This document shows positions 9,557-31,297 of a stretch of DNA of 52,911 nt, piece by piece. The stretch is taken from positions 1 through 52,911 of the forward strand of contig JBDRBU010000034.1 in assembly GCA_043822305.1 (NCBI GenBank), given 5' to 3'. Position numbers and translations under genes: made by a program. The notes below the pieces were generated by a model. That model was not told the origin of the DNA. It worked only from the letters and a program-made list of their open reading frames with translations, and ran no database searches. This stretch comes from Candidatus Firestoneibacteriota bacterium. GTDB taxonomy: Bacteria; Oederibacteriota; D2-FULL-39-29; JBDRBU01. Positions within the stretch are counted from its first letter, which is position 1. Every line of letters starts with the position of its first letter.

Positions 9557-11266
9557 TTGAAGAAAAGGGGGTTATTCTTGGGTAGGCCTTTAGGAGAAAT
9601 ATTAATAGAAGAAGGTTTAATCACACCTCTCCAGTTAGAAAAATCCATGGCTGAACAAAAAGCCACCGGTAAACGATTAGGACATTCTTTAATAGATTTA
9701 GGTTATATTACTGAAGATAATTTGCTGAAAATTTTAGGTAAACAGTTGGATTATCCTACTGTAAATTTAAATGATACAATAATTGAGCCAGAGATAATCA
9801 AATTAATCCCGGAAGATATTTGTCGAAGGTCCAAGGTATTGCCATATCAAGTAGAAAATAATACAGTATTCTTAGCCATGGTTGACCCGCTTGATTTCAG
9901 AGTTATAAATGATATAAAGTTTTTAATTCATAAAAATGTAAAAGCGGTGATTGCCAGTGAAAAAGCTTTAACTATAGCCATCAGCAGGTATTATGGTCTA
10001 CCGGATGAGATGCGAGATATAGTAAAACAGATCGATAATAAGTTACTTCAAGAAGGTCAGACGGGTGAAGTAGAAAAACTCCAGGAAATCGCAGAAGATG
10101 CACCAATAATTAAAATAGTGGATTTGATTATAATGAATGCTGTTATGGAAAGAGCAACTGATATTCATATTGAGCCTTTTGAAAAAAATATGCGTATCAG
10201 ATATAGAAAGGATGGAATATTGCGGGAAATTCCTTCCCCGCCGGTGGCATTATACCCGGCCATTATTTCTCGTATAAAAATCATGTCAAGATTGGATATT
10301 GCAGAAACAAGACTTCCGCAGGACGGACGTATGTCGAAAAAAGTTTCAGGAAGAGAAGTCGATTTTCGTGTTTCTATAATTCCAAATCAGTTCGGAGAAA
10401 GAATTGTTCTAAGAATCTTAGATAGAGGAGCTACTCTTCTTGATTTAGAAAAGTTAGGGATGGAAGGTGATGATCTGAAAAAATTTGCGGAAGCAATAAA
10501 TAAACCATATGGAATGATTTTAATAAGTGGACCAACTGGTTCTGGAAAAACCACCACACTTTATGCTTCTTTAAATAAAATATATAGTATGGAAGATAAT
10601 ATTTTAACCATAGAAGACCCAATAGAATACTCTTTCTTTGGCATAGGACAGGTTGAGGTAAAGGAAGAAATTGGTCTAACTTTTGCCAGGGTGCTTAGAA
10701 GTTTTTTAAGGCATGACCCTGATATTATTTTACTTGGTGAAATGCGTGATTTTGAGACAGCAGATATTTCTATTCGTTCTGCTTTAACCGGACATCTGGT
10801 TTTTAGCACTATTCACACTAATGACGCTCCAAGTTCTGTAACAAGATTAATAGATATGGGTATAGAGCCGTTTTTAATCAATTCATGTGTTATTATGGTT
10901 ATGGCTCAAAGACTTGTAAGAAAATCCTGCGAGCATTGTAAAGAATCTTACGAGATGACACCGGATGCGCAACTGGCTACATTTGGTGTAGTTTTAGAGA
11001 AAAAGAATATTACTTTTTACAAAACAAAAGGATGTGAAATCTGCGGAAACACGGGTTACCGTGGTCGTATAGCTATTTTTGAAATAATGATGATGGATGA
11101 TGAGATAAAAACTTTAGTGGCTAAGAAAGTAGAACCACATGAAATAAAAAAAGTTGCCATGGAACGTGGAATGCGTACATTATTCCAAAGAGGTGTATCG
11201 CTGGCCTTAAGAGGAATAACTACTGTTGATGAGGTTATAAAAGTAGCCGGAACGGCTCTAGAATAG
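9557..11266 (+). CDS. pilB: PilB/GspE assembly ATPase
   Basis: MshEN-like N-terminus (LGEILIEEGLITPLQL), Walker A GPTGSGKTTT, TIEDPIEY, GEMRD, STIHTNDA, two CxxC motifs. Confidence 0.92.
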   Translation: MKKRGLFLGRPLGEILIEEGLITPLQLEKSMAEQKATGKRLGHSLIDLGYITEDNLLKILGKQLDYPTVNLNDTIIEPEIIKLIPEDICRRSKVLPYQVENNTVFLAMVDPLDFRVINDIKFLIHKNVKAVIASEKALTIAISRYYGLPDEMRDIVKQIDNKLLQEGQTGEVEKLQEIAEDAPIIKIVDLIIMNAVMERATDIHIEPFEKNMRIRYRKDGILREIPSPPVALYPAIISRIKIMSRLDIAETRLPQDGRMSKKVSGREVDFRVSIIPNQFGERIVLRILDRGATLLDLEKLGMEGDDLKKFAEAINKPYGMILISGPTGSGKTTTLYASLNKIYSMEDNILTIEDPIEYSFFGIGQVEVKEEIGLTFARVLRSFLRHDPDIILLGEMRDFETADISIRSALTGHLVFSTIHTNDAPSSVTRLIDMGIEPFLINSCVIMVMAQRLVRKSCEHCKESYEMTPDAQLATFGVVLEKKNITFYKTKGCEICGNTGYRGRIAIFEIMMMDDEIKTLVAKKVEPHEIKKVAMERGMRTLFQRGVSLALRGITTVDEVIKVAGTALE

Positions 11267-11279
11267 AGAGGGACAGAAG

Positions 11280-11513
11280 GTAAATCATCAGTGAAAGCCG
11301 TGAGGATTGTATTTCCGTATTCCCCCTTTGTTAAGGGGGATCAAGGGGGTTGTTGTGTTATGAATGTTTATTATAATTCAAAATTGAAATTTCGTGTAAG
11401 AGAACTTAACCATAAAATATTGTTTAGCAAACTGAAACTTGTAATTAAACAACCCCCTAACCCCCTTTATTAAGGGGGAATTAAAAAATAGAGGGCTTTT
11501 ACTGAATATTTAC
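11280..11513. mobile_element. MITE-like element, copy 2 (234 bp)
   Basis: Imperfect 20-bp TIRs GTAAATCATCAGTGAAAGCC / GGCTTTTACTGAATATTTAC; inner inverted CCCCCTTTnTTAAGGGGG palindromes. Confidence 0.85.
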
Positions 11514-11523
11514 TAAAAAAGTA

Positions 11524-11552
11524 TAGACAAATTAAAAAAAATTGTGTAAAAT
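11524..11552 (+). promoter_or_regulatory. Sigma70-type promoter upstream of pilC
   Basis: TAGACA-17 bp-TAAAAT. Confidence 0.5.
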
Positions 11553-11595
11553 ACATTATAAATATTCCTGATTAAAGGAATTGGAGGCGGGCAAA

Positions 11596-12840
11596 ATGCC
11601 AATATTTCAATATATAGCAGTTGATGCTGATGGTAAGGAATATAAAGGAGTAATGGAAGCAGAAAGTAAAGACTCTGCTGCCACAAAACTTCAGCGTCAA
11701 AGATTAATGGTCACAACTTTAAAAAGAAAATGGATTGTGGCTGAGTGGTTTAAGAAAGCTTCTGCGGGTCAGATAAAGAGAGCAGATATTTTACTTTTCA
11801 GTAGACAATTAGCCACCCTGGTTAAAGCAAGAATTCCGATTGAACAGTGTTTGGAAGTTTTAATTGGTCAGATACAGAATGTAGAGTTTCAAAATGTGAT
11901 AAAGCAAGTTCGTTCTGATGTTATCTCTGGTACTCCTCTTTCAACAGCATTAGGAAAATATTCTAAAATTTTTAGCCCTCTTTATATCGGAATGCTTAAA
12001 GCAGGAGAAGCCTCTGGAAAACTTCCTGAAATTTTGGTTAGAACAGCAAGGTTTATGGAAAGAACAGCAAGATTGGTAAGTAGAGTTAAAGCCGCCATGA
12101 TTTATCCGGTACTTGTTATTTGTGTAGGTATTGTTGTTATTACTTTCATCATGGTAGGTGTTATCCCACAATTTGAATCTATGTATGCTACATTTAAAGG
12201 AGACCTCCCGCTAATAACAAAAATTATGATTTTTATTAGCAGGGAACTATTAGGCAAATATGTTTTTGCCATGCCATATTTTATTATAGAAGCAATTGCT
12301 TTAGTGTTTATAATTTTAGGATTAAGGAGTTTGCTTAAAGCTGAAAAAAGTAGATATAAGATTGATGAATTTATTTTACAGATTCCGGTCTTAGGATCAT
12401 ATCTTCAAAAAGTTATATTTGCAAAATTTTCTCAAACATTAGGAATATTAGTCAGTAATGGTGTGCCTATACTTGAATCCTTAAGTTTAGTTGCAAAAAT
12501 AGTTGGCAATAAGCCAGTAGAATCTTCTATCCTGGAAGCCAGAGAAAAAATTAAAGAAGGAGAAAAAATAGCAGATACATTAAAGAAAGGGAAATTCTTT
12601 CCACCTTTAGTTGTTCAAATGGTTAATGTTGGCGAGCAGACTGGAAAACTTGGTGAAGTTTTAGAACAGATTTCAGAATTTTATGAAGAAGAAGTAGAGA
12701 TATCAACTCAAGCACTTGTATCTATTATAGAACCACTTTTAATATTAGGCTTAGCCGGAGTAGTGGCCATTATAGTTGTGTCCTTATATTTACCAATATT
12801 TAGAATGTATTCCCAGATGAGTAAAGTAAAACCTTATTAA
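11596..12840 (+). CDS. pilC: PilC/GspF platform protein
   Basis: FSRQLATLV, GEASGKL, AAMIYP, GEQTGKL and LYLPIF motifs; GGAGG SD before ATG 11596. Confidence 0.92.
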   Translation: MPIFQYIAVDADGKEYKGVMEAESKDSAATKLQRQRLMVTTLKRKWIVAEWFKKASAGQIKRADILLFSRQLATLVKARIPIEQCLEVLIGQIQNVEFQNVIKQVRSDVISGTPLSTALGKYSKIFSPLYIGMLKAGEASGKLPEILVRTARFMERTARLVSRVKAAMIYPVLVICVGIVVITFIMVGVIPQFESMYATFKGDLPLITKIMIFISRELLGKYVFAMPYFIIEAIALVFIILGLRSLLKAEKSRYKIDEFILQIPVLGSYLQKVIFAKFSQTLGILVSNGVPILESLSLVAKIVGNKPVESSILEAREKIKEGEKIADTLKKGKFFPPLVVQMVNVGEQTGKLGEVLEQISEFYEEEVEISTQALVSIIEPLLILGLAGVVAIIVVSLYLPIFRMYSQMSKVKPY

Positions 12841-12868
12841 AAAAAATAAAAAAGGAGGTGAAAATTAA

Positions 12869-13360
12869 ATGAAAAAACAGAAAGGATTTACGCTAATAGA
12901 GTTAATGATAGTCATAGCCATAATCGGGTTACTTATTGCTATAGTCATACCTGATTTACTTAAGACAAGAAGGGAGTCAGAAATACAATCCTGCAGTGCA
13001 TCATTAAGAGGAGTGCAATCATCTTTGGAGTTGTATTACACACATTATAAGTATTATCCAGAGAAGTTAATAACTTTGATCACAGAAGGATATTTATCAG
13101 AGGGTTCAAATATGGACCCATGGCACATGTCATATGAATATCAACCACTTTATGCCGGAGGAGAGGGTGATACAGGGAGTGGAGAAGGGAAGACAGCATC
13201 CAACTATTTATTAGGTAGTAATGGACCTGATGGCAAGAAAGGGTCAGATGATGATATAGAGCCACCAATCAACCCAAGTAGACATTCGTTAAAGTCTGGA
13301 GGAAAAGCAGCAGCAGAAGAGACAGATACACCAGCAGAAGAAGAGGTACCAGCAGAATAG
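12869..13360 (+). CDS. Major pilin / GspG-like pseudopilin
   Basis: KG|FTLIELMIVIAIIG class III signal, DPW and SNGPDGKKGSDDDI (GspG-like), strong AGGAGGTGA SD, acidic tail. Confidence 0.85.
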   Translation: MKKQKGFTLIELMIVIAIIGLLIAIVIPDLLKTRRESEIQSCSASLRGVQSSLELYYTHYKYYPEKLITLITEGYLSEGSNMDPWHMSYEYQPLYAGGEGDTGSGEGKTASNYLLGSNGPDGKKGSDDDIEPPINPSRHSLKSGGKAAAEETDTPAEEEVPAE

Positions 13361-13368
13361 GAGACATC

Positions 13369-13386
13369 AAAGGGGCAACCTTTTTA
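13369..13386 (+). terminator. Possible weak intrinsic terminator after the major pilin
   Basis: AAAGGG-GCAA-CCTTTTT short hairpin with T tract. Confidence 0.35.
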
Positions 13387-13389
13387 TTC

Positions 13390-13456
13390 CTAACCCTGTA
13401 CCATTCGCAGGTTCAGGTACAGGGTTAGTATTATTTGGTTATATTATGGAAAGTCA
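13390..13456. repeat. 13-bp-stem hairpin fused to a 31-nt B module
   Basis: CTAACCCTGTACC-loop-GGTACAGGGTTAG, overlapping TAGTATTATTTGGTTATATTATGGAAAGTCA (13426-13456). Confidence 0.75.
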
Positions 13457-13469
13457 AGGAGTAAGTTAA

Positions 13470-14015
13470 ATGAAAATAAAAAATAAAGAAATATTTTTGA
13501 AAAGTGAAAAAGGTTTAACTCTTATTGAGGTTCTAATTGCCATGGCTTTTGTCGCGCTTCTATATGCTTTTGTTGTTCAGATATTCTTCCATGGGTATAA
13601 AAATATTACAAGAGGAGATATACAGGATGAAGGTGTCCGACTTGCAAAAAATGAGATGGTAAGATTATCAAGTATAGAGAATCCTTTGTATATTGGTTTA
13701 CAGTATAAAGATGATGGAGAAACCTACATCAATGATTTAAAGACAAAAAAGATAACCCCATATGATTTAGTTGATATGGGAGTGATTAAAATAACAATAA
13801 AAGAAGTATTAGTCACTGAGACTTCGGCTACAGAAGGTGCAGATGAGATAAAGAAGGCATCTAATGAGAGAGCAAATTATGTTCGAGTAGTAGAATGGCA
13901 AGTGAACGATGTTGACCCTGTTTTAGTGCATCTTTGGGTGTCTGTGAAATGGACTGATCCGCAGGGTGAATTTAAAAGCGACGAGTATGTTTTAGAAACT
14001 ATGTTATCCCCGTAG
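13470..14015 (+). CDS. Minor pilin (prepilin N-terminal methylation domain)
   Basis: EKG|LTLIEVLIAM class III signal. Confidence 0.8.
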   Translation: MKIKNKEIFLKSEKGLTLIEVLIAMAFVALLYAFVVQIFFHGYKNITRGDIQDEGVRLAKNEMVRLSSIENPLYIGLQYKDDGETYINDLKTKKITPYDLVDMGVIKITIKEVLVTETSATEGADEIKKASNERANYVRVVEWQVNDVDPVLVHLWVSVKWTDPQGEFKSDEYVLETMLSP

Positions 14016-14047
14016 ATTTTACAGCGATTTGTTAAGAGGTGATAATT

Positions 14048-14953
14048 ATGGAACCCTCTAATAATAAAAAAAGTGGTTTTACCCACGCACCACTAAAGGG
14101 TGCGGGGTTTACATTATTAGAATTAGTTGTAGCCATGGGATTATCTTTTTTAGTCATGCTTGGTATTTATATGGCTTATTTTATATCTTCTACCTTCTTT
14201 AAAAGGGGAACAGATTCTATTCAAGAACAAATGTATGTCAGGACGCTTTTTTCTAGAATAGCGGATGATTTGCAATTTTTATCAAGGTTAAATACTTTAT
14301 CAGAAAATCAAGATGAATTAGAATTTGAGATATTTAATAGAAGAATTGTAAAGACGGATTCAAATACCAATGATAAATTAGTGGAAGGAAATGTTGTAAA
14401 TTATAAGACAGAAGAATCAAAAGATTTTGGAGGTATATCATTTTCAATTCTAAAAAAAGAAATAGATAAGTATGAATGGTGGCAGAGATTTAGCCACAGT
14501 CAGAAGCCAAATGACAGTGAGGATATAGATCCAGCCTGGCGAGGGTACCCGGATGATATGAGAGATTCAACATATGGAAAGCAGGTTACTGACCAGGGAG
14601 GTCTTGAAGAAATTTTAGAACAAGAAAAAGGAAAAGAGTTTTTGATATCAAATATTAAGTTTGAGGCATACAATAATCTTGGTCAAAAGATTGAAGGTGG
14701 AGGGGACTATTCAACATTAAAAACAGCAAGAAGCATGAAAGTTGAAATAAAATATAGGGTATATGGAAGATATGGTGAAATGTTACGAGAAAAAGTGAAT
14801 GAAAAAACTGTTTCAACAACAATTCATTTTATTAATTTTTCAATACTTAACCCATTAGAAGATGAAGAACAGCCAGAGGAGACTAACAAACGCCCAAGTC
14901 CATTTTTGTCTAATTTTTTTGCAAAAGCATTTTTTTTTCGGATAAGATATTAA
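14048..14953 (+). CDS. Minor pilin (PilW/GspJ-like) with duplicated GFT cleavage motif
   Basis: KKSGFTHAPLKGAG|FTLLELVVAM; GAGGTGA SD before ATG 14048. Confidence 0.8.
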   Translation: MEPSNNKKSGFTHAPLKGAGFTLLELVVAMGLSFLVMLGIYMAYFISSTFFKRGTDSIQEQMYVRTLFSRIADDLQFLSRLNTLSENQDELEFEIFNRRIVKTDSNTNDKLVEGNVVNYKTEESKDFGGISFSILKKEIDKYEWWQRFSHSQKPNDSEDIDPAWRGYPDDMRDSTYGKQVTDQGGLEEILEQEKGKEFLISNIKFEAYNNLGQKIEGGGDYSTLKTARSMKVEIKYRVYGRYGEMLREKVNEKTVSTTIHFINFSILNPLEDEEQPEETNKRPSPFLSNFFAKAFFFRIRY

Positions 14954-14954
14954 T

Positions 14955-14977
14955 GTAGTCGCAGACTTTAGCCTGCG
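14955..14977 (+). repeat. GTAG-type REP (GTAGTCGCAGRCTTTAGCCTGCG family)
   Basis: GTAG followed by an imperfect palindrome; copies at 18024-18046 (-), 29408-29430, and expanded forms at 39294 and 40263. Confidence 0.8.
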
Positions 14978-14997
14978 AAAGAAAGGGGTAAAAGAAC

Positions 14998-16626
14998 TTG
15001 GCCAAGAATATAAGCACAGGAATAGATATAGGCAGCAGCCAGTTGAGAGTAGTTCAATTAAGAAAAACTCAGCATGGTGTAAAAATAGAAAGGTATTTTA
15101 TAGAAAATTATAATCTCTCACCTAAAGATTTGGAATCTCCGGATATTAAAAAGAGTAAAATATTAGAAATATTAAGCAAAATTTTTAAGGAAATTAAGCC
15201 GCTTAATGTAATATCTACAGTGGCCAAAGGTGAAGATAATGTCCGAACAATTTCAATGCCTTTAATACCAGAAAAATCTTTACGAGAAGCATTAAAATGG
15301 GGAGGACAACCAGACTACATTCCATTTGATTTAAAGGAAATGATATGGGATATTAATATTTCTCAGGTTTTTAGAAGAAAAGAAGAGATTAAAACAGATG
15401 GAAAAGAAAAAATGGATGTGGTTCTTGTTATTTCAAAGAAGGAAGTGGTAAATCGGTACTTAGATATTGTTGAGAATTTAAAATTTTCTGTAGATATATT
15501 AGAATCCAATGTGCTGGCTGGCATAAATTTCTCTTGTTTTAATTCGGTAGTACCCGGAGAGAAAATATGGACTAAAATAGATTTTGGAGCAGAAACTACA
15601 GCCATTAATATATTAGAGGGAAACAATTTAAGACTCAGTTTAAATGTTCCCTGGGGAGTAAATGATACAATTGAGACAGTTCAATCAGTTTTAAATAAAA
15701 ACTGGGAAGAATCTATTGAATTTATTAAAGGGTTGGATTTTTCTAAGGATATTGGTTCACAGGATGAATCTACGCGGAAGGTTTTTCAGGTTTTAGAACC
15801 TAAAATAAAAGATTTTTTAAGACAATTAAGCGGTGCTTTTGGTTTTTATGAAAGCAAACATCCTGGGAAAACTGTAGCTGATGTTTTGCTGAGTGGCGGA
15901 GGTGCTAATTTATTAGGAATTGACAAGTATTTAATGGATAAAATTGGCAAACAGGTATATATTGAAAAAATAAATAAAAATTTGATAAGCTTTGAAAAAA
16001 AAGAAGAGGAGAAATTAAATTCATTAGTTTGCTTTCTGGATGTGGCCATAGGTGCTGCCCTTAGAAACTTATTACCCGTCAAGAATAATGTAAATTTACT
16101 TCCTGTAGAAATAATAATAGGTAGGAAATTAAAAAGCAGAAGGTTTTCTATAATGACAGTGGCTAGTATATTGTTTCTAATATTACTTGCTGGTTCTGTG
16201 TGTAAATTTAATGAAAGAGGAAAAGTTGTAAAGGAAATAAAAATATTACAATCAGATTTTTTAGCAATTTCGGCGGAAACCAATGAACTTTATAAAATGA
16301 GTCAAGCTATTGATTCATTTAAAGAGACAGAAAGAGAGTACGGATATGTAAAAAAGAATATGATCCCTTGGAATAGTATAATTTATGAACTTGTAAGTCT
16401 AGTCCCGGATAAGACACAACTTAGCCATGCTTCGTGGGATATGAGTGGTTTTAAGACAAACGGTAAATGTCCCAAAAAAAATGACCAGGTAAAACAATTT
16501 ATTGATAATACAGAGCAATCTAAATATTTTAAAGGTTTAACAGCTCCGGCTACTAGACCTTCAGGAGAAGACATAACATTTTCAACAGGTAAACGTGAAG
16601 ACAGGAGAAAGAATGTCGGGAAGTAG
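14998..16626 (+). CDS. PilM-like protein fused to a PilN-like domain
   Basis: GIDIGS, DFGAETT, LSGGGA and AIGAALR (PilM), followed in-frame by VNLLP, a TM helix and a coiled coil (PilN). Confidence 0.8.
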   Translation: MAKNISTGIDIGSSQLRVVQLRKTQHGVKIERYFIENYNLSPKDLESPDIKKSKILEILSKIFKEIKPLNVISTVAKGEDNVRTISMPLIPEKSLREALKWGGQPDYIPFDLKEMIWDINISQVFRRKEEIKTDGKEKMDVVLVISKKEVVNRYLDIVENLKFSVDILESNVLAGINFSCFNSVVPGEKIWTKIDFGAETTAINILEGNNLRLSLNVPWGVNDTIETVQSVLNKNWEESIEFIKGLDFSKDIGSQDESTRKVFQVLEPKIKDFLRQLSGAFGFYESKHPGKTVADVLLSGGGANLLGIDKYLMDKIGKQVYIEKINKNLISFEKKEEEKLNSLVCFLDVAIGAALRNLLPVKNNVNLLPVEIIIGRKLKSRRFSIMTVASILFLILLAGSVCKFNERGKVVKEIKILQSDFLAISAETNELYKMSQAIDSFKETEREYGYVKKNMIPWNSIIYELVSLVPDKTQLSHASWDMSGFKTNGKCPKKNDQVKQFIDNTEQSKYFKGLTAPATRPSGEDITFSTGKREDRRKNVGK

Positions 16627-17929
16627 TGAAAAAAAAGGATTAAGTATTTGGTTGGAAGAATTTAATATAAACAAAACAGATATTATAATATATTCTGTTA
16701 ATCTGGGAATTTTAATAATTTTAATAATAATGTTTATTTTAATTTCTAATGATTTACAAAACAAGATTGGACAAAGAAGAAGTAATGCTAAAAAGTATGA
16801 AAAAGCTTTAACCTTAAAAAGCGAAGCGGATAAGATTAAATTAGCCTACAGCACCTTGCCTAAAGTTTGCGAGATCTTATTAGACAAATTTGTGGCTCAA
16901 AATGAAATGTCCGATTTTGTTGAATATGTTAAAACAATGGCGACTACATTTAAAGGGAAAGAAATATCTGCTTCTCCGTCTCCGACATCTTTTGAAGAAA
17001 AAATATTCTCCGTACCTGATGAAGTTGCAGATTTTTTTGTGGAAAAAGGGGTGTTTAAAGAGAACGATTTTATTCTAACACAAAAAGGTAAAAACATGAA
17101 AGTTGTTTTTACTAAACAACCATTAAGGATTGACATGGGAATGAGTTTGGGTAATTTACTTGCATTTCTTTACTGTTTAGAGAATTCTTCAAAGTATATT
17201 AATGTAGCCAGTTTAAGTTTATCAGGAGGAGGGGAATCTGATTCAGTTAGAGTAAGTATGACTGTAAATGGTTATCAGTTATCCAAGGGATTAATTGATA
17301 GGATTCATTCGATACTTTCTGAAACTCCTCTGGTTATGTTAAAAAATAATATTAAGAAAATATTAGATAAATCTAATTTAAGTGATGAACAATTAAAAGT
17401 AGATATAAAGAATATTTTGAAGGAAGATTTAACACCAGAATCTAAGGAGTTAAAAAATAATATTAATCAAGTTTTGTCTGAGACCAGTTTGGTGAGTGTA
17501 GTCTTGAAAAACAAGATCAAAGAAGTTTTATCTAAAACTCGTAAAAGTAGTGAAATAAAGGTAGTGAAATCACTTCCCAGAGTTTCAAGAGTAACAGAGA
17601 AAAGAGTTCTTAAGGAAGAAGTTGTTAAGTATGATAATAATATTGAACAAAGAGTAAGATCCATACTTTCAGTGCCGGTGCCACCGCCACCGCCACCGCC
17701 ACCCAAACCAGAGAATATTAGGTTTCTAATTATTATGACAGATTTAGTAAGTGTTGATGTTGATGGTAAGACATATCACGCATTCATAGGTAAAGGACCT
17801 TTTAGGTCTATAAAAAAAGAATCTATACCAGGTTTTGAAAATTTAAAAATAATAAAAAAAGATGACAATAAGGATCTTATTATATTAGATAATAATGGTG
17901 TAACATCAGATATTCCATTTAAAAAGTAA
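16613..17929 (+). CDS. PilO-like membrane protein with helical repeats and a poly-Pro linker
   Basis: TM plus coiled coil, LLAFLYCLENSSKYINVASLSL (PilO-like), position after pilMN, P8 run. Confidence 0.55.
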   Translation: MSGSSEKKGLSIWLEEFNINKTDIIIYSVNLGILIILIIMFILISNDLQNKIGQRRSNAKKYEKALTLKSEADKIKLAYSTLPKVCEILLDKFVAQNEMSDFVEYVKTMATTFKGKEISASPSPTSFEEKIFSVPDEVADFFVEKGVFKENDFILTQKGKNMKVVFTKQPLRIDMGMSLGNLLAFLYCLENSSKYINVASLSLSGGGESDSVRVSMTVNGYQLSKGLIDRIHSILSETPLVMLKNNIKKILDKSNLSDEQLKVDIKNILKEDLTPESKELKNNINQVLSETSLVSVVLKNKIKEVLSKTRKSSEIKVVKSLPRVSRVTEKRVLKEEVVKYDNNIEQRVRSILSVPVPPPPPPPPKPENIRFLIIMTDLVSVDVDGKTYHAFIGKGPFRSIKKESIPGFENLKIIKKDDNKDLIILDNNGVTSDIPFKK

Positions 17930-18023
17930 AAAAAGCTGAACAAATTTCAAAAAAATGCTACTAATATAGTAGAAGGGAAATTCAAGTTAGAAGGAGGTGG
18001 TGAAATACAGGGTAGTCTCGATA

Positions 18024-18046
18024 CGCAGGCTAAAGCCTGCGACTAC
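18024..18046 (-). repeat. GTAG-type REP
   Basis: CGCAGGCTAAAGCCTGCGACTAC, the reverse complement of the REP consensus. Confidence 0.8.
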
Positions 18047-18088
18047 AAGAAATAAGGAGAAACAAGGAGAAACGAGGAGGGGAGTGAT

Positions 18089-19702
18089 ATGAAAAAGATT
18101 TTGATAGGATGTATGTTAATGTTGGTTAGTTCTATTGGTTGGGCTCAAACACAAGTATATGTAGAACCACCATTAGAGTTTACTGATACACCGATAAAGA
18201 CAGCGTTAGAGACGATATTTCTGAAGGCAGGGGTGGTGTCATACTCGATAGAAGTGTCGAATATGGAGAACTTAGGATTGGTAACATTAAAGTTAACAGA
18301 GAGGACAGAGTTAGAGGCGTTATTAACTTTAGTCTTACAGCCTAAGGGATTAGAATTCAAGAAGGATGAGGGAGGAGTATATCATATAAAAAAGCAAGGG
18401 GCTGTTGGGGTTATATTGACGCCAAGGATAACGAAGTTATATGCCTTAACATATGCGACCGCAGGAGAATTGGTTAGACAGGTAAAAGGGGTATTAACAA
18501 AAGAAGGGGTAATAAGTGTAGATATAGGGACGAACTCGTTAATCATAACAGATGACCCATCAGTATTTGAAGGGGTGGAGAATTTGTTAAAGGAATTAGA
18601 TAACCCTGAAAGGAAAGCGAAGTTAATAGCCATAAAAAGTAAGTTAATAGAGATAAGTAAGGTAGTAGATACGACATTATCGATAGATGCCCAGTATACA
18701 AAGGGGGCGGGGATATCAATAGGAGGAGGGACATTAACAGGGACTGGAGCATGGACAGGGACAAGTTTTGCGACAGCCTCGCTTATATCTGGTGGAGGAG
18801 GATTTTTCTTAGGTCCATTCTCATGGACAAATGGAATGGATACAATAGTATCACAGTTATTTGCGACTACTGGTAGCACGAGTATAGATATGATAGCAGA
18901 GCCGGATCTATTGGTTGAGGATGGGACAGAGGCGAGGATACAGGTTGGCACTAAGGAGCCACTGGTGTTAACGAGTGAGGATGATGATGGCGACGTAACA
19001 ACAACTGTTACATATCAGGATGTGTTTATAATATTAACAGTAACACCGCAGAGTCAGAGGGATGGGACGATAAGTGTGCAGATAAATCCGCAGTTGAACC
19101 AGATAGCAGGATTTGTATGGTCACCTTCAGGTACTGTCCCAAGAATAGACAACAGGGAAGTCAGGACGAAGTTATTTGTGAACAATGGAGGGACCATTAG
19201 ACTGGGAGGGATGTTTAAGGATAGGACGACGATATCAGAGACTAAGATACCATTTATAGGGGATATACCTTTAATAGGGTTGTTATTTAAGTCGACGAAT
19301 CCAATAACAGACAGGATAGAATTACAGATATTGGTAAGTCCACATATAGCAGATTATGCACCGCCGAGATGTAAGGATACGCCATGGATAAGTATATTAG
19401 AGGCGAGTATGGCCGGGGATATGGATGTAAAGATAGACTGGAGCAAGGATTTACCATTTGGAGCGAATGGGATATTTAGCTACAATGTGTACAGGGATGT
19501 GCAGCCGATAGAAAATTTAGAAGATAGAAAGCCATTTGCAGGTGGAATAAGTGGAGATGCAACAAGTTGGATAGATATGAGTAAAAAGAGGAGAGGTGGA
19601 ACATATTATTATGTAGTAACATCGGTAAATCCATCTGGAATGGAACAGTCTATATCACCCGACCCAAAGTTTAATGCCGTGATAACTATACCTGAAAAAT
19701 AG
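18089..19702 (+). CDS. Secretin (GspD/PilQ) with C-terminal FnIII-like extension
   Basis: Signal peptide, N-domain (DIGTNSLIITD...LKELD), LTVTP, KIPFIGDIPLIGLLFKS and LVSPHI motifs. Confidence 0.85.
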   Translation: MKKILIGCMLMLVSSIGWAQTQVYVEPPLEFTDTPIKTALETIFLKAGVVSYSIEVSNMENLGLVTLKLTERTELEALLTLVLQPKGLEFKKDEGGVYHIKKQGAVGVILTPRITKLYALTYATAGELVRQVKGVLTKEGVISVDIGTNSLIITDDPSVFEGVENLLKELDNPERKAKLIAIKSKLIEISKVVDTTLSIDAQYTKGAGISIGGGTLTGTGAWTGTSFATASLISGGGGFFLGPFSWTNGMDTIVSQLFATTGSTSIDMIAEPDLLVEDGTEARIQVGTKEPLVLTSEDDDGDVTTTVTYQDVFIILTVTPQSQRDGTISVQINPQLNQIAGFVWSPSGTVPRIDNREVRTKLFVNNGGTIRLGGMFKDRTTISETKIPFIGDIPLIGLLFKSTNPITDRIELQILVSPHIADYAPPRCKDTPWISILEASMAGDMDVKIDWSKDLPFGANGIFSYNVYRDVQPIENLEDRKPFAGGISGDATSWIDMSKKRRGGTYYYVVTSVNPSGMEQSISPDPKFNAVITIPEK

Positions 19703-24776: not shown

Positions 24777-27110
24777 ATGAAAAAATCAAAATTAATAACT
24801 GTTTTACCTTTTATTATTTCTTTATTTTTTTATTTACTAACAATTTGTCCCACTTTATATATTGGAGATGATGGCGAGATTGTTTCGGCAGCATATACTT
24901 TAGGCATTTCACATCCACCAGGTTATCCGCTATACACTATTTTAGGAAAAATATTTACTTATTTGCCTTTAAGCAATATTGCTTTTAGGATAAATCTTCT
25001 ATCTGCGTTTTTTGGGAGTCTGACAATATTATTATTATTCCTTACTTTATCCACTTTATTCACTTTTTCCACTTCAACCACTTCTTTCACTTTCCCCACT
25101 TTATTCGCTTCTTTGTTGTTTGCTTTTTCTTCAACATTTTGGTCGGCTAGTTTGCATGTGAAAGGGGGAATTTATACCTTAAATACATTTTTCATAATAT
25201 CTCTTTTTTATGTTTTACTAATAAATAGTCCAAATTTATTTGGTTTACTTCTGGGATTTGGTTTAGCGAACCATAATACACTTAGTTTATTTATACCCTC
25301 ATTTCTAATATTCATCTATGTCTATAGAAGAAACTGGCTAAAATTTAGTATTTTAAAATATATTTTGTTGCTGATATTTATCGGTTTATCCACTTATTTA
25401 TATTTAATAATCAGAGCAAATGCAAAACCATTGATGAATTGGGGTGACCCTTATAATCTTGAAAGAGCAATTTATCATATTTTCAGGAAACAATATGGCG
25501 AAATAAGTAAATGGCCGCATACAGTTGTTTCATTTATTAATATATGTAGTGTTTACTGGAAATGGTTGCTTAAAGAATTTACTCCGTATTTGCTGATTCT
25601 TATTCCATTTGGTGTATATAAATTTTACAAATTGGACAAAAAATTGTTTTGGATATTTATGTTTACTACCTTGACAACAATTTTTGGAATGATATATGTT
25701 TTAAATTTTGAAATTACCCCAAGGAATATCTATGTTTATGGGGTGTTTTTTATACCATCATTTATGTTTATATCTTTGTTTATAGGATCGGGATTATTTT
25801 TTCTAATAGAAAAGTTAAAATTCGTGAGTTATGTAATACCATTATTTGTATTGTTGCCCTTAATGAATAATTATTCTCGAGTAGATTTAAGTAAAAATTA
25901 TATTGCTTGTAATTACGGGATAAATATTTTAAAGACTGTAGATAAAGATGGAATATTGTTTACTGAAGGCGACAATCAGATGTTTGTCTTAGCCTATTTA
26001 CAGTATGTTGAAGGGATTAGAAAAGATGTTAGTATATATGACGATATAGGTTGTATATTTAAAAATATCTATGGGGAGAATTTCTTAAGACTTTCAAAAA
26101 TTGAAAAGGATGCCATTAGAAATAAAGCACAAAAAGAAATTATTGATAAAACAAATAGTTCTGTTTACATTCCAATAGTAAGTAGTAAAAGAGAAACTAT
26201 GGGATATTTTAAAAAAGAGCAGAATGGAATACTTTATAAAATTGTGAAAACCACACAGTTGAAAATCCAAAAAGATTTTAAAGATTATTACAACTTATCT
26301 GAAATTGAAAATAATTATGAGGATTATCTGGTTAGAGATATAATTGCTCAGTACTATTTCGCTTTTGGAGAATATTATTTTACTAAAGGAGAAAAACAAA
26401 AGAGTTTAGAGTATTTTGAAAAATGCGGTTTAGTTGGATATGATTCAGAGTGGGTATTTAATAATCTGGGTGTGGTTTATTTAGAGAAAGGATTTAAGGA
26501 GAAAGCATTGGAATATGCCCAAAAATCAATTTCAGTTAATCCAGATTCTGCAAAAGATCACGCAAATCTGGGTGTTATGTTTTATCAGCAAGGTAAATAT
26601 AATGAGGCCATAAATGCTTATCATAAGGCACTTGAATTAAATAGTAATTATGCAGAAGCATATAATGGTTTAGGAACTGTATATGGTCTTGCGAATGAGA
26701 ATGATAAATCTATAAAATGTTATGAAACGGCGATATCTTTAAAACCAAATTATGTGGAGGCCATAGCCAACATGGGAATAGTTTATCATAATAAAGGAGA
26801 AATAGATAAAGCAATAGAACTGTATAGAAAAGCCATCTTCATTAGTCCTAATTATTCAGATGCACATAATAATCTGGGTGTTTCATACGAATCCAAAGGG
26901 CTACTTGATGAAGCATTATCTGAATATAGGAAATCCCTGGAATTTAATCCTAATAAGCCAGATGCATATCATAATATTGGAGTTATATATTATAAACAAG
27001 GAAAATATAAAGAAGCAATTACAGAATGGGAGAAAACATTATCTTTGGATCCGAACTATATTAAAGCAAAACAGAATATAGAGTTAACAAAGAAAAAATT
27101 TAAGCATTGA
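24777..27110 (+). CDS. DUF2723 / TMEM260-like GT-C membrane protein with TPRs
   Basis: GDDGE...LGISHPPGYPLY, NHNT, NWGDP and GDNQMF motifs; about 7 C-terminal TPRs. Confidence 0.85.
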   Translation: MKKSKLITVLPFIISLFFYLLTICPTLYIGDDGEIVSAAYTLGISHPPGYPLYTILGKIFTYLPLSNIAFRINLLSAFFGSLTILLLFLTLSTLFTFSTSTTSFTFPTLFASLLFAFSSTFWSASLHVKGGIYTLNTFFIISLFYVLLINSPNLFGLLLGFGLANHNTLSLFIPSFLIFIYVYRRNWLKFSILKYILLLIFIGLSTYLYLIIRANAKPLMNWGDPYNLERAIYHIFRKQYGEISKWPHTVVSFINICSVYWKWLLKEFTPYLLILIPFGVYKFYKLDKKLFWIFMFTTLTTIFGMIYVLNFEITPRNIYVYGVFFIPSFMFISLFIGSGLFFLIEKLKFVSYVIPLFVLLPLMNNYSRVDLSKNYIACNYGINILKTVDKDGILFTEGDNQMFVLAYLQYVEGIRKDVSIYDDIGCIFKNIYGENFLRLSKIEKDAIRNKAQKEIIDKTNSSVYIPIVSSKRETMGYFKKEQNGILYKIVKTTQLKIQKDFKDYYNLSEIENNYEDYLVRDIIAQYYFAFGEYYFTKGEKQKSLEYFEKCGLVGYDSEWVFNNLGVVYLEKGFKEKALEYAQKSISVNPDSAKDHANLGVMFYQQGKYNEAINAYHKALELNSNYAEAYNGLGTVYGLANENDKSIKCYETAISLKPNYVEAIANMGIVYHNKGEIDKAIELYRKAIFISPNYSDAHNNLGVSYESKGLLDEALSEYRKSLEFNPNKPDAYHNIGVIYYKQGKYKEAITEWEKTLSLDPNYIKAKQNIELTKKKFKH

Positions 27111-27138
27111 CACCGTCAATGCACTCCAAAAAATAAAA

Positions 27139-29400
27139 ATGAAAAAAATTATAATATTAATATTGTTTTTGCTGACAATTGGGTTGAAACTTTATTTATA
27201 TAAACAAAATACTGATTTTAATGAAAAATCTGATTTTTGTTTATTCAGGGTAGAGTCGGCCATAAGGTATCATTATGCAAAATTAGTGGCCTATGGAGAA
27301 AATATTCCTAAGATAGATACCAATGCCCAGTATCCGGAAGGTTTAAAAGTCAAAGATAGAATAAAATTAACAACAGAATACATAACAGGAATATTGTATC
27401 AGTTTATACCCAACACAGTTCCTTTCCATGTTTTTTTAATTTACTTTATGTTTACTATCTCAAGTATAACAGTTTTTATTGTTTATTTAATATCGTTTAA
27501 ACTTTCAAAAAATTTTTATGGTTCTATTTTGTCCTGTTTGTTTTATATAACCGCATTTCCATCATACGCCAGGACAGTGGCTGGAGGATTTGTTGAAGAA
27601 GATTTTGCCTTGCCTTTTATATTTTTAAGTTTTTTGTTTTTTTTAAAGTCTCTTGAGCATAGCCAAAAATACCTGTATCCATTTTTATGTGGTTTGTTTT
27701 TATTCATTCCATTAACTTCATGGCATTTAACACAATTTTATTTTACTTTGTTTTTAATATTTATAATATTTCAATTTTTTAGAAAATTTGAAGAAAGAGA
27801 TAAAATTATATTACCGTTTTTATTTATTATTAGTTTTAACATATTAGGCGGAATTTTTGTCCCAACATTAAATTCGGAGAACTTCTTATTTTCATATAAT
27901 ATGCTAATCTCGTATTCGTTAATAATGATTTGGATTGTGGCTAAGCATATTAAGATGAACAAATGGATTTCGCTCGTTACATTTGTTGTTTTGATTATTT
28001 TTGTTCTAACATTGTTTTCATTTTTGACAAGTAGTCACAAAGCAGAATACAGTCATGTTTATTCTCTTGTTTTGTATAAAATTATATATTTTGGTAAAAA
28101 ACCCGACGACCCAAGTTCAATGCCATTTGATGCAAAAGTATTCTGGCAAGCAGGTTTTTTAAATCCCTCATTAAAAAATATTATAGTAAGTTTTGGTGGG
28201 ATTTTTATTATAGCCTTATTTGGAATTATTTTAACAATCTTTAAATTTGTAAAAAACAAAACAGAAACAACCGAAGAAGGATTATTATATTTTGTTTTAG
28301 TGTTTTTACCGCTTTATCTTTTATTTGAAAGATTGTATGTTTTTTTAATATTTTTTATGGCACCATATGTAAGTTTAATATTTAATTTAAAATTTCAATT
28401 ACCTGAAAAAACTAATAAAATAATATTAACTTGTATTTTATTCTCGGGAATAGTTTTTCAATCTTATTCAGGGTTTTCATATGATATAAAAATAAAAGAT
28501 GCAGATGTTCATAACGATGTAGTTAGATGGTTAAAAGAAAACACAAAAGAAGAGGATTCTGTCTTAGCCAATTTTGGTTTTTCAGCATCAATTTTCACAT
28601 ATAGTCAAAGACCAATTGTTCTTCATCCAATGTTTGAATCAAAAGATATCAGGGACAAGACAAAGGAATGTTATGAGGCGATATTTAATAAAGAAGAAGA
28701 TTTTTATAAACTTTGCAAGAAATATAAGATAAAAATATTTATATATGATTGGCATTATATTTTAGATAAATCAAAGAATTCCATAAGATATCAGATAAAT
28801 CAAAACAATCTTTTTAAAGAATCAGTTGCGTTTAATTTTCATTTTTATCCGGAAAGACTTAAACATTTTAGTTTATTATATCAGAATACATATTATAGGG
28901 TTTATAAAGTTAATGAAATAGATGAAAAACCTTATGTAGCCCAGGATCTTTCTTATAAGCCATTTTTTAATCCAAAAATATTTGTCCTGGAAGACAATTT
29001 GCCTTATTTAAATGATGAGTACACTCAAAAAGTTATGGAGAAAGTCTGGGATATCCCGAATGTTTTGAACATAGCAAATTTGCATAGGAAACAAAAAAGG
29101 AATGACTTAGCAGAGATTGAGTATAAAAAAATAATATCCATAGACCCGTATTTCCCAGAGGCGAGGGTATCACTGGCTGAATTTTATTTGTCAGTTGGTA
29201 GATACAAAGAAGCAATACAGGAATGCAAAATTGCGGTAGAATTAAATGAGCACTTTTTAGATGCGTATTATTTTTTAAGCCAAGGTTATTGTAAAAATGG
29301 AGAAATAAAAAAAGCAATAGAAGTTTTAAAAGATGCCTTAAAAATTGCACCAAACCATGAAGGAATAAAAAATACTTTATTGATGTTAGAGAAAGATTAA
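27139..29400 (+). CDS. DPY19/STT3-like GT-C glycosyltransferase with C-terminal TPRs
   Basis: FRVESAIRYHYAK, EEDFALPF, SWHLTQF, WLKENT...RPIVLHPMFESKDIRDKT resemble DPY19 blocks; about 12 TMs. Confidence 0.7.
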   Translation: MKKIIILILFLLTIGLKLYLYKQNTDFNEKSDFCLFRVESAIRYHYAKLVAYGENIPKIDTNAQYPEGLKVKDRIKLTTEYITGILYQFIPNTVPFHVFLIYFMFTISSITVFIVYLISFKLSKNFYGSILSCLFYITAFPSYARTVAGGFVEEDFALPFIFLSFLFFLKSLEHSQKYLYPFLCGLFLFIPLTSWHLTQFYFTLFLIFIIFQFFRKFEERDKIILPFLFIISFNILGGIFVPTLNSENFLFSYNMLISYSLIMIWIVAKHIKMNKWISLVTFVVLIIFVLTLFSFLTSSHKAEYSHVYSLVLYKIIYFGKKPDDPSSMPFDAKVFWQAGFLNPSLKNIIVSFGGIFIIALFGIILTIFKFVKNKTETTEEGLLYFVLVFLPLYLLFERLYVFLIFFMAPYVSLIFNLKFQLPEKTNKIILTCILFSGIVFQSYSGFSYDIKIKDADVHNDVVRWLKENTKEEDSVLANFGFSASIFTYSQRPIVLHPMFESKDIRDKTKECYEAIFNKEEDFYKLCKKYKIKIFIYDWHYILDKSKNSIRYQINQNNLFKESVAFNFHFYPERLKHFSLLYQNTYYRVYKVNEIDEKPYVAQDLSYKPFFNPKIFVLEDNLPYLNDEYTQKVMEKVWDIPNVLNIANLHRKQKRNDLAEIEYKKIISIDPYFPEARVSLAEFYLSVGRYKEAIQECKIAVELNEHFLDAYYFLSQGYCKNGEIKKAIEVLKDALKIAPNHEGIKNTLLMLEKD

Positions 29401-29446: not shown

Positions 29447-31297
29447 TTGAAAAAGAATAAAGTATTTTATATAATGAATAATATGGAAATACAAAATGTT
29501 AAGGATATAATATCAAAAGAAATCTCAAGAGCTCTTGCCTTAAAAGAGATAAACAAAATTTATTTAAGTGATAGAATAGGAACTAATCCTGCTTTTAATA
29601 AAACTGCTAATTATGTTTATAATCGATTAAAAAAGATTGGATTAAAAGATGTAGAAAAAGTTTTTTATAAGGCAGATGGTAAGACTTTAATCTCTGACTG
29701 GAGACCTTCTCCTGCTTGGGATTGTAAAAAAGCTTCTCTTAAGATTTTAGAACCAAAAAGATTTGCAAGAACTTTAGTGAAGTTTCCTGATAATCTATTA
29801 TGTGTTGCCGCCAATAGTGGACCTACACCAAAAGAAGGGATTATGGGACGGGTTATGTTAGTCGAAAAAGTTTCTGATTTAAATAAAGCAAAGGGAAAGA
29901 TTATTTTTACACAATTAAAAATAAGCAATATTAGAAAAGAAATAGTTAAAAATAAAGTATCTGGAGTAATTTCAAGTTCTGTTTTTAACCAATCTAATTA
30001 TAAAAAAGGTATTTATAAAGATAATATAATATACTGGGAGAATGTATGGCACGCAAGACCAAACGAAGTTAATTTCTTTGCATTTAAGATTACTCCAAGG
30101 GATGGGGAATTTTTAAAAGAAATTTTAAAAAATGGCGAAAGATTAGTTGTGAAAGCATACATAAATGCAAAAAATTATAGTGGAAAAATTCCAACTGTTA
30201 GTGCCGTAATTCCTGGAAAGAATTTAAAAGAAGAAGTAGTAGTAGTTGGACATTTATATGAAATAGGAGCAAATGATAATGCTTCAGGCACAGGACTTAT
30301 GATAGAAATAGCCAGAACCTTAAATACTTTAATAAAAAATAAAATATTAGATAAACCAGAAAGAAGCATCAGATTTTTATTTGTTTTTGAATGTTTTGGA
30401 ACATTAGATTGGTTGATGAAAAATAAAAATAAAAAGTTTATGGCTGGATTAAATTTAGATATGATAGGAGAGAATCAGTCAATTTGTGGCAGTACGATTT
30501 TACTAAATGTATCATCTGAAGAAGTTCCTTCTTTTGTTAATGAACTGATTATCAGTTTATTTGAAGATATATCAAAAGAGTATCCTTTAATTCGTTGGAC
30601 TACTCATTCACCGTCAATCGATGATGGAACATTATTTTCGGACCCGGTGATAGGTGCAGGAACCCCATTTATATATCAACAGCCAGACCCTTATTATCAT
30701 AGTGAAGATGATTCTATGGATAAGATAGATCCAAATATTTTAAAGTTTATTGGTATTATTTCAGCAACATATTTATACTTTATCGCTAATTCTAAAGAAA
30801 ACGAAGCAAGATGGTTGATGACTATTATAAATAATTTCTGGAAAAAGAAAATAGCTAATGCTGTTAAAGAAGGACAGACTAAAGAGAAAATAGATTATCT
30901 ATTAAGAATTTTTAATGCAAATTTGAATTCTGCACTTAAACTTGTGAAAGAAAGCGGGGAAAGTAAAAAAAGTAAAGAAAGCAAAGAAGATTTGATACCA
31001 AAAAGAATTAAATTTGGATTACTTGCCTTTGATGGAATTTCTGATAAAGAAAAAGAGAAATTTTTAAGAATTGCTGGCACTATTTTCCCCTGGTCTGATT
31101 ATCTTTGTTCAATGTTATTCTGGATAGATGGGAAAAAAACTATTAAAGAAATAAATTGGTTGCTATCTAATCAATATGGAAAATCAGATTTAAAAAAGTT
31201 GATAAAAATTCTTAAGTTTATGAATGAACATCGTTATATAAAATTTGTAAATCAGGAGAAAAAAAATGTTGGGAAATATTCCGGTTCTAATAGTTGA
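29447..31297 (+). CDS. M28-family aminopeptidase-like (DUF4910-type) protein
   Basis: GHLYE.GANDNASG, FECFG, NLDMIG, YYHSEDD and a C-terminal DGKKT wHTH-like region. The true start may be ATG 29474 or 29483. Confidence 0.8.
   Translation: MKKNKVFYIMNNMEIQNVKDIISKEISRALALKEINKIYLSDRIGTNPAFNKTANYVYNRLKKIGLKDVEKVFYKADGKTLISDWRPSPAWDCKKASLKILEPKRFARTLVKFPDNLLCVAANSGPTPKEGIMGRVMLVEKVSDLNKAKGKIIFTQLKISNIRKEIVKNKVSGVISSSVFNQSNYKKGIYKDNIIYWENVWHARPNEVNFFAFKITPRDGEFLKEILKNGERLVVKAYINAKNYSGKIPTVSAVIPGKNLKEEVVVVGHLYEIGANDNASGTGLMIEIARTLNTLIKNKILDKPERSIRFLFVFECFGTLDWLMKNKNKKFMAGLNLDMIGENQSICGSTILLNVSSEEVPSFVNELIISLFEDISKEYPLIRWTTHSPSIDDGTLFSDPVIGAGTPFIYQQPDPYYHSEDDSMDKIDPNILKFIGIISATYLYFIANSKENEARWLMTIINNFWKKKIANAVKEGQTKEKIDYLLRIFNANLNSALKLVKESGESKKSKESKEDLIPKRIKFGLLAFDGISDKEKEKFLRIAGTIFPWSDYLCSMLFWIDGKKTIKEINWLLSNQYGKSDLKKLIKILKFMNEHRYIKFVNQEKKNVGKYSGSNS

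Follow-up and report, generated by a model that had tools for sequence, protein, structure and literature searches.

DPY19 proteins are tryptophan C-mannosyltransferases, among them C. elegans DPY-19 (CeDPY19; PDB 7ZLG/7ZLH/7ZLI) and human DPY19L1–L4. The STT3, AglB and PglB oligosaccharyltransferases belong to Pfam PF02516 and CAZy family GT66, and TMTC1–4 (GT105) and TMEM260 are eukaryotic GT-C protein O-mannosyltransferases fused to tetratricopeptide repeats (TPRs). Compared with these systems below is a gene at positions 27139..29400 (+ strand) of a 52,911-nucleotide stretch of DNA (the window), contig JBDRBU010000034.1 of the Candidatus Firestoneibacteriota bacterium assembly GCA_043822305.1, which encodes a DPY19-like GT-C glycosyltransferase with C-terminal TPRs. 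DPY19 is placed in CAZy family GT98 in the portion of PMC6801728 used here, and the relevant part of PMC10214176 describes TMTC and TMEM260 proteins as a GT-C membrane domain followed by TPRs thought to recruit or select clients. The portions of PMC6801728 and PMC8724618 drawn upon confine C-mannosylation and C-ManT-like sequences to metazoa and alveolates, and one of these two reviews suggests lateral transfer for the patchy spread of C-mannosylation. This agreed with an earlier note on this DNA, made from the letters, which held that C-mannosylation is characterised in eukaryotes and that no demonstrated bacterial case is known. In a 2026 review (PMC12990085), bacteria come up, in the sections available, solely as degraders or as a source of lectins. 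No report on bacterial DPY19 homologues was found in the literature searched, most subscription journals lying outside its coverage.

Our best explanation, put forward tentatively, is that the gene encodes a periplasmic DPY19-type enzyme that would use a polyprenyl-phosphate hexose for C-glycosylation of tryptophan (or another aromatic residue) in exported proteins. The parts of this explanation differ in strength. The protein is very likely a GT-C enzyme using a lipid-phosphate sugar, a protein is somewhat favoured as the acceptor, and C-glycosylation of tryptophan is a possible but uncertain assignment. Family kinship, fold and the conserved catalytic and donor-binding residues are directly supported, and we infer the donor, the sugar, the protein acceptor and the tryptophan linkage.

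Kinship with DPY19 and STT3

The open reading frame starts with ATG, is uninterrupted and encodes 753 amino acids plus a stop codon. The window has 30% G+C, with nearly all genes on the + strand, and its contig (C34) is one of 125 in a 2.15-Mb assembly of 96.8% estimated completeness (the source genome). Five motifs quoted in the earlier note were present in the protein in collinear order, namely FRVESAIRYHYAK (residues 36–48), EEDFALPF (153–160; 27595..27618, +), WHLTQF (195–200; 27721..27738, +), WLKENT (464–469) and RPIVLHPMFESKDIRDKT (491–508). The animal counterparts given in the note were found in the HMMER alignment with CeDPY19 as YRTEMGLYYSY, RESFAFPF, WQFTQF, WIQHNT and RPIVNHPHYEHVGIRERT, respectively. 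No WWD string occurs across the full 753-residue protein, so that the STT3 motif WWDYG is absent, as stated in the note. The note had also proposed a comparison of the Dpy19 and STT3 profiles, and Pfam Dpy19 (PF10034) matched at E 1.2e-25, its 90.2 bits lying far above the gathering cut-off (27.2) and well beyond chance, while Pfam STT3 gave no match to the protein at E ≤ 1. In a six-frame search of the source genome, positions 14–333 and 433–653 of the 653-position Dpy19 profile were matched, and none of 14 control genomes matched in the same search. Pfam STT3 had no match in the source genome in a search in which four archaeal controls were positive. An NCBIfam scan of the protein recognised the TPR part only.

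The membrane domain (residues 1–451; 27139..28491, +) was assigned about 13 transmembrane (TM) helices, as in DPY19 and STT3, from the helices of the AlphaFold2 model, hydropathy and structural matches; no hydrophobic segment was found after residue 446. It is followed by an alpha/beta "dome" domain, predicted to be periplasmic (residues 452–595; 28492..28923, +), which was delimited from the secondary structure of the model and of which residues 452–592 matched the C-terminal domain of AglB (3vu0_C; VIA-align Z 13.7). Within the dome, the loop His496–Arg505 (HPMFESKDIR) is the counterpart of the DPY19 active-site loop His575–Arg584. Three TPRs at residues ~640–745 (29056..29373, +; Pfam TPR_2, TPR_1 and TPR_8) complete the protein and would also be periplasmic. 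The description of the protein in the note as a bacterial DPY19-like protein with added TPRs therefore held.

Searches against solved structures placed CeDPY19 ahead of STT3. Residues 1–620 of the protein matched CeDPY19 7zlg_A first, at E 1.6e-07, and an STT3-like chain second, at 2.5e-04. With a profile of 15 family members from which the TPRs had been removed (A2), 7zlg_A was again the top match (E 1.3e-23, 86.5 bits), in a single, nearly full-length stretch joining profile positions 23–541 to chain positions 48–620. The STT3-like chain 8i9p_Lh was matched by the same profile in two partial stretches at E 2.2e-18, and human and canine STT3A at about 2e-10 (2.3e-10).

The AlphaFold2 model built from A2 (mean predicted local distance difference test score 87.1, predicted template-modelling score 0.87) contained the GT-C(A) fold with 13 TM helices and the C-terminal alpha/beta dome, and structural matches by Foldseek and VIA-align spanned model residues 1–595. 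In Foldseek, the three CeDPY19 entries led at E 1.7e-16 to 2.6e-15 (TMq 0.75–0.77, 16–17% identity), followed by STT3 chains from E 1.1e-14. VIA-align gave Z 31.4 for CeDPY19 7zli_A (root-mean-square deviation 3.2, 573 aligned residues, 18% identity) and Z 34.3 for STT3A 6s7o_A (2.9, 539 and 13%, respectively), so that STT3 exceeded DPY19 by about 3. The Z scores of STT3A/B and yeast Stt3 were 31.8–34.3 and those of the STT3/AglB/PglB group overall 24–34, compared with 20 or less for PMT, ArnT, Aft and ALG enzymes. By its predicted fold the protein belongs to the STT3/DPY19 group of GT-C enzymes, and the fold cannot separate the two because STT3 scores as high or higher. The earlier note had named a better match to STT3 as grounds for giving up its reading; sequence profiles and Foldseek favoured DPY19, whereas the VIA-align Z score and one motif in external loop 1 (EL1) favoured STT3.

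That motif, D60..QYPEG68, matches DDRTWHPLG of STT3 and not CeDPY19. Arg145, Trp195 (in STT3, within "SW"), Arg398 and an Arg-Pro pair after the last TM helix (TM13) are common to the bacterial family, DPY19 and STT3. However, unlike STT3, the family carries TQF and RPxVxHPx(F/Y)E, as DPY19 does. The EL1 Asp of STT3 (in "FDPWFN") aligned with Cys34 of the protein, and "NFGFS" aligned with the WWDYG of 8i9p_Lh. The family is a mosaic, DPY19-like in the catalytic carboxylate, in (R/K)E(D/N)FALP, W.xTQF and RPxVxHPx(F/Y)E and in having no metal site, and STT3-like in part of EL1. To call it a bacterial sister branch, lying between STT3 and DPY19, suits it better than to call it an orthologue of the animal enzyme. 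It also differs from DPY19 in being bacterial rather than of the eukaryotic endoplasmic reticulum, in its low identity (16–18%) and in its added C-terminal TPRs. Like TMTC1–4 and TMEM260, the protein joins a GT-C membrane domain to lumenal or periplasmic TPRs, and a TMEM260-like gene with TPRs lies directly upstream of its gene; unlike in those proteins, the membrane domain matches Dpy19 and not PMT_2 or the TMEM260-like family.

Active-site residues

Residue roles were taken from Bloch et al. 2023 (PMC10154233) and mapped by HMMER alignment of the sequences, and conservation was counted over 175 family proteins aligned with MAFFT, excluding the 419-residue fragment P0034. According to the active-site sections of PMC10154233, Glu71 of CeDPY19 is catalytic, Arg471 binds the donor phosphate and is essential, Arg211 contacts both the phosphate and Trp(+3), and Trp262 forms a hydrogen bond with the donor phosphate. 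The counterpart of Glu71 was Glu39 in EL1 (codon at 27253..27255, +; alignment to 7zlg_A), aligned with high posterior probability, with Glu in 155 and Asp in 8 of the family proteins; 12 had neither, gaps counted. The catalytic Glu, which the note had proposed to check on a predicted structure superposed on DPY19, was thus conserved in the sequence alignment. The counterparts of Arg211, Trp262 and Arg471 were Arg145 (27571..27573, +), Trp195 in the WHLTQF motif and Arg398, conserved in 157, 174 and 173 members, respectively. Leu472 corresponded to Leu399 (Leu 85, Met 57) and Arg584 to Arg505 (164 members), and Glu500 was kept in 170.

The metal site of STT3-type enzymes, DxD or DxE, was not recognisable. 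Position 152, which corresponds to the metal-binding Asp of STT3 in external loop 2 (EL2), is Val in this protein and variable in the family (Leu 58, Val 28, Glu 17, Ser 17, Ile 16). Of the two acids, only the second is kept, as in DPY19 (Glu154, 159 members). In the alignment, neither this metal-binding Asp nor the EL1 Asp position is conserved in the family. We consider it very probable that the protein is a GT-C transferase, active at the periplasmic face with a polyprenyl-monophosphate sugar and metal-free as in DPY19.

The same sections of PMC10154233 describe a groove for the acceptor Trp(0) formed by Tyr395, Phe401, Tyr578 and the carbonyl of Pro576, the Tyr395/Phe401 region belonging also to the dolichol groove. 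By sequence alignment, the tentative counterparts were Phe335, Phe340, Phe499 and Pro497, respectively. The first two lie in the external-loop-5 motif AKVFWQAGF (28132..28158, +), where Trp336 is invariant (175 of 175) and Phe340 is found in 125 members. Position 335, next to Trp336 and with a register uncertain by one residue, is mostly Leu (86) or Met (48), with Phe in 18. His575-Pro576 corresponded to His496-Pro497 (His 134; Pro 80, Ser 74), and Tyr578 to Phe499 (Phe 130, Tyr 27).

The pocket for Trp(+3), the second tryptophan of the WxxW sequon, consists in CeDPY19 of Arg211, Lys473 as the cation–pi partner and Leu474 as the floor, and an Ala mutant of Lys473 nearly abolished activity (same sections, PMC10154233). 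The segment Arg398-Leu-Tyr-Val401 (28330..28341, +) aligned with Arg471-Leu-Lys473-Leu474. Val401 at the Leu474 position (Val 109, Ile 21) and Arg145 at the Arg211 position were kept. However, Lys473 was replaced by Tyr400, at a position that varies across the family (Ser 36, Glu 20, Tyr 14, Asp 14, Gly 13), and the protein departs from the WxxW pocket at this residue.

Proposed reaction and competing explanations

In the reaction that we propose, the protein would be an inner-membrane GT-C enzyme of DPY19 type with about 13 TM helices and a cytoplasmic N-terminus, the catalytic loop, the dome and the three TPRs facing the periplasm. Its donor would be a polyprenyl monophosphate loaded with a single hexose, probably mannose, by one of the DPM1/GtrB-like GT2 enzymes of the source genome; the carrier would be a bacterial polyprenol, compared with dolichol for DPY19. 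The leaving phosphate would be held without metal by Arg398, Arg145 and Trp195, with Glu39 as general acid/base, and the sugar would be placed on proteins that are exported and still unfolded, the TPRs helping to recruit them. The conserved site would best suit a DPY19-like reaction in which the side chain of a tryptophan (or of another aromatic residue) is C-glycosylated, in a sequon other than WxxW. Protein clients are favoured because of the TPR fusion and because all close relatives, whether close in sequence or in structure, are protein-modifying enzymes. The C2 atom of tryptophan is favoured by the Glu at the DPY19 position, by the His-Pro loop and by the conservation seen at the aromatic positions.

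The source genome can plausibly supply lipid-linked sugars. Five of its 17 GT2 matches (L017, L018, L023, L024 and L025) are similar to polyprenyl-phosphate hexose synthases, with AglJ, PpgS, PgfS, ArnC or a dolichyl-phosphate hexose transferase as best matches, all below the curated cut-offs. Mannose-1-phosphate guanylyltransferase was the best NCBIfam match of two nucleotidyltransferases, both below cut-off.

Several results weigh against tryptophan C-glycosylation. Lys473 is lost, and the EL1 carboxylate is generic in GT-C enzymes. As the alignment to 8i9p_Lh shows, neither this carboxylate nor the two Arg residues are peculiar to DPY19 within the STT3/DPY19 group, and they thus give no proof of C-glycosylation. 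The EL1 motif and the higher VIA-align Z score of STT3A point in the same direction. The source genome gave no match to TIGR01479, the canonical bifunctional ManC, and none at E ≤ 1 to TSP_1, the thrombospondin type 1 repeat of known clients, in this 96.8% complete assembly. WxxW occurred 100 times, compared with 69 ± 5 in shuffled sequences, and other W–W spacings occurred likewise 72–96 times; WxxW arrays were absent, with a maximum of two per protein among 2037 crude open reading frames. The search for clients by motif was rejected, the WxxW excess being unspecific and TSP_1 lacking. Furthermore, the genes around the homologues differed from locus to locus, with no operon partner shared across the family, and pointed to no client. 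The suggestion of bacterial C-glycosylation in the earlier note was therefore upheld as to a DPY19-like GT-C enzyme with TPRs, and weakened as to Lys473, TSP_1 and WxxW-rich clients.

The loss of Lys473 and the lack of TSP_1 domains and WxxW-rich proteins speak also for the first alternative, that an enzyme of the same class and with the same donor attaches its sugar to Ser, Thr or Tyr (O-linked) or to Asn or Arg (N-linked) of proteins, and not to a tryptophan carbon. We regard it as about as likely as tryptophan C-glycosylation, or slightly less so. O- and N-transferring GT-C enzymes also have the EL1 carboxylate, the Arg pair and the fold, and the source genome is rich in TPR-fused, TMEM260-like putative O-mannosyltransferases. 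Bacterial protein O-mannosylation is established and C-mannosylation is not, in the portion of PMC6801728 used. Against these considerations, the carboxylate stands at the DPY19 position and not at that of STT3, the sequence alignment shows conservation of the His-Pro loop and of the aromatic positions in the Trp(0) groove, and searches of Pfam and of PDB sequences ranked DPY19 above every O- or N-transferase.

Glycans or lipids are the acceptors of many bacterial GT-C enzymes, and ArnT, Emb/Aft and YfhO-type enzymes decorate envelope acceptors. An enzyme acting on a non-protein acceptor of the envelope (lipopolysaccharide core or lipid A, polysaccharide or peptidoglycan), with TPRs docking on envelope machinery, is nevertheless unlikely here. 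A Kdo transferase gene and a DUF374 gene precede the DPY19-like gene in the Firestonebacteria locus L007, but this neighbourhood is not conserved at the locus in the window or at other loci. About one third of the sampled family members have no TPRs (22 of 65 without TPR_2), and ArnT and Aft appeared further down the structural lists, at Z 15–20. The closest relatives, DPY19, STT3, AglB and PglB, at Z 24–34, all modify proteins, and the peptide-groove loop His496–Arg505 is conserved.

That the protein is a divergent oligosaccharyltransferase of STT3/AglB/PglB type, transferring a pyrophosphate-linked oligosaccharide to Asn, is very improbable. The VIA-align scores were highest for STT3A/B and yeast Stt3, the D..QYPEG motif resembles STT3, four of the 65 sampled members also matched Pfam STT3, some members are named "STT3 domain-containing protein", and STT3-tagged clusters are among the ESM Atlas neighbours. 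However, neither the protein nor its whole genome matched Pfam STT3, WWDYG is absent, the EL1 Asp and the first acid of the EL2 DxE are not conserved, and identity to STT3 was 12–13%, compared with 17–18% to DPY19. A catalytically inactive scaffold or receptor, which the 12 members lacking Glu or Asp at position 39 might suggest, is scarcely credible for a protein that, like 163 of the 175 members, keeps this carboxylate, and also Arg145, Trp195, Arg398 and Glu500.

By keeping the catalytic Glu and the donor-binding residues of DPY19, the family provides a concrete candidate for bacterial C-glycosylation or another, unknown protein glycosylation, to which the reporter and mass spectrometry assays used for CeDPY19 are applicable. 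If the DPY19-type reading that we tentatively prefer is correct, tryptophan C-glycosylation extends beyond eukaryotes, in a family that is spread over many uncultured phyla and mixes STT3-type with DPY19-type motifs. A broader proposal, that bacteria C-glycosylate tryptophan of exported periplasmic proteins and that this family is the prokaryotic stock of the patchy eukaryotic DPY19, perhaps through gene transfer, is speculative and doubtful.

Bacterial family and gene neighbourhood

A family with hundreds of sequence clusters that keep the DPY19 Glu and donor-binding residues could serve the eukaryotic enzymes as an outgroup, or may have been their source. A word-indexed search returned 35 relatives. 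Precomputed annotation already assigns 33 of these to PF10034, and the existence of such automatic tags limits the novelty of the finding. The nearest named relative was from a Candidatus Firestonebacteria metagenome-assembled genome (MAG), at 57% identity, and no eukaryotic DPY19 was returned by two word-indexed searches with 35 and 43 matches. An exhaustive profile search over 1.84 billion cluster representatives matched 2359 at E ≤ 1e-3, 1222 at ≤ 1e-10 and 724 at ≤ 1e-30. The best 150 representatives all scored above 425 bits over nearly the full profile and were full-length family members. P0035, the most distant relative, had no PDB match. In a Pfam sample of 65 proteins, made up of the DPY19-like protein and every second identifier from P0036 to P0162, Dpy19 was matched by 63 and TPR_2 by 43.

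Members were named "hypothetical protein", "tetratricopeptide repeat protein" or "STT3 domain-containing protein" in their sources. Their MAGs were labelled Firestonebacteria, Elusimicrobia, TA06, Desulfosudaceae, Kiritimatiellaeota, Aminicenantes, Chlamydiota, Clostridia and, once, "archaeon", and the ESM Atlas held a further cluster rich in Planctomycetota. The spread was patchy, with matches in 3 of 41 relatives and, above the cut-off, in 3 of 99 genomes of the same phylum, the source genome (G000) included. In the phylum of the "Elusimicrobia" MAG G099, 9 of 26 genomes matched.

Directly upstream of the DPY19-like gene, at 24777..27110 (+), a TMEM260-like GT-C protein of 777 amino acids with seven TPRs is encoded (PF11028, E 3.8e-26). 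A perfect palindrome with an 8-bp stem (27104–27122) spans the stop codon of this gene and reaches into the 28-bp gap before the DPY19-like start; no T-run follows it on the + strand. A scan for promoters and terminators was uninformative, with 62 promoter-like sites compared with 56.7 in shuffled sequences. A look-up of expression gave no sequencing run for the DPY19-like gene. Downstream, a cytoplasmic-looking M28 peptidase/DUF4910 protein of 616 amino acids without evident signal peptide (29447–31297, +) is encoded between the DPY19-like gene and a thymidylate-synthase-like gene. At the loci of the Firestonebacteria orthologues, the thymidylate-synthase-like gene follows directly, without the M28 peptidase, and a Kdo transferase gene precedes. 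Nine related loci were found with a narrower alignment (A3). No TMEM260-like match lay beside the homologues in loci L003–L015, and both the TMEM260-like neighbour and the M28 peptidase were rejected as partners, neither being conserved next to homologues. About 7 kb upstream, at 9557–19702 (+), the window carries a type IV pilus/type II secretion-like cluster with a T2SSE ATPase, T2SSF, pilin-like genes, PilM and a secretin; nothing suggested its pilin-like proteins as clients.

In six of the nine loci, a divergent gene directly upstream of the DPY19-like gene encodes a conserved TPR_12 protein of about 320 amino acids without signal peptide (L008:6946-7908(-), L009:4085-5035(-), L011:21-443(-), L013:4213-5166(-), L014:455-1405(-) and L015:6728-7705(-)). 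None was present upstream in L007 and L012, and L010 has no upstream DNA. A homologue with 37% identity is encoded in the source genome at C92:3254-4306(-), between the genes of a TMEM260-like GT-C protein with TPRs and a GlmU-N-like nucleotidyltransferase. The TPR_12 protein may be a cytoplasmic partner of GT-C enzymes.

The 2.15-Mb source genome carries nine full-length TMEM260-like (PF11028) GT-C genes, seven of which encode C-terminal TPRs. Besides the copy in the window, they are located at C92:4294-6639, C12:30401-33010, C85:35691-38180, C85:38199-40514, C24:23259-25508, C107:1973-4246, C107:28677-30539 and C74:29974-31824. Several PMT_2/DUF2142 GT-C genes are present besides, which makes up an unusually large set of TPR-fused lipid-sugar transferases. 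At C107:28677-31579 (-), the gene of a 347-residue nucleotidyltransferase (mannose-1-phosphate guanylyltransferase as best match, 229 bits, below cut-off) abuts that of a TMEM260-like GT-C protein on the same strand, which suggests a local pair for sugar activation and transfer. Within the window, the gene at 4685-6634 (+) encodes a protein of 649 amino acids with many C-terminal TPRs and a sub-threshold N-terminal PMT_2 match (21.7 bits), which may be another GT-C–TPR fusion.

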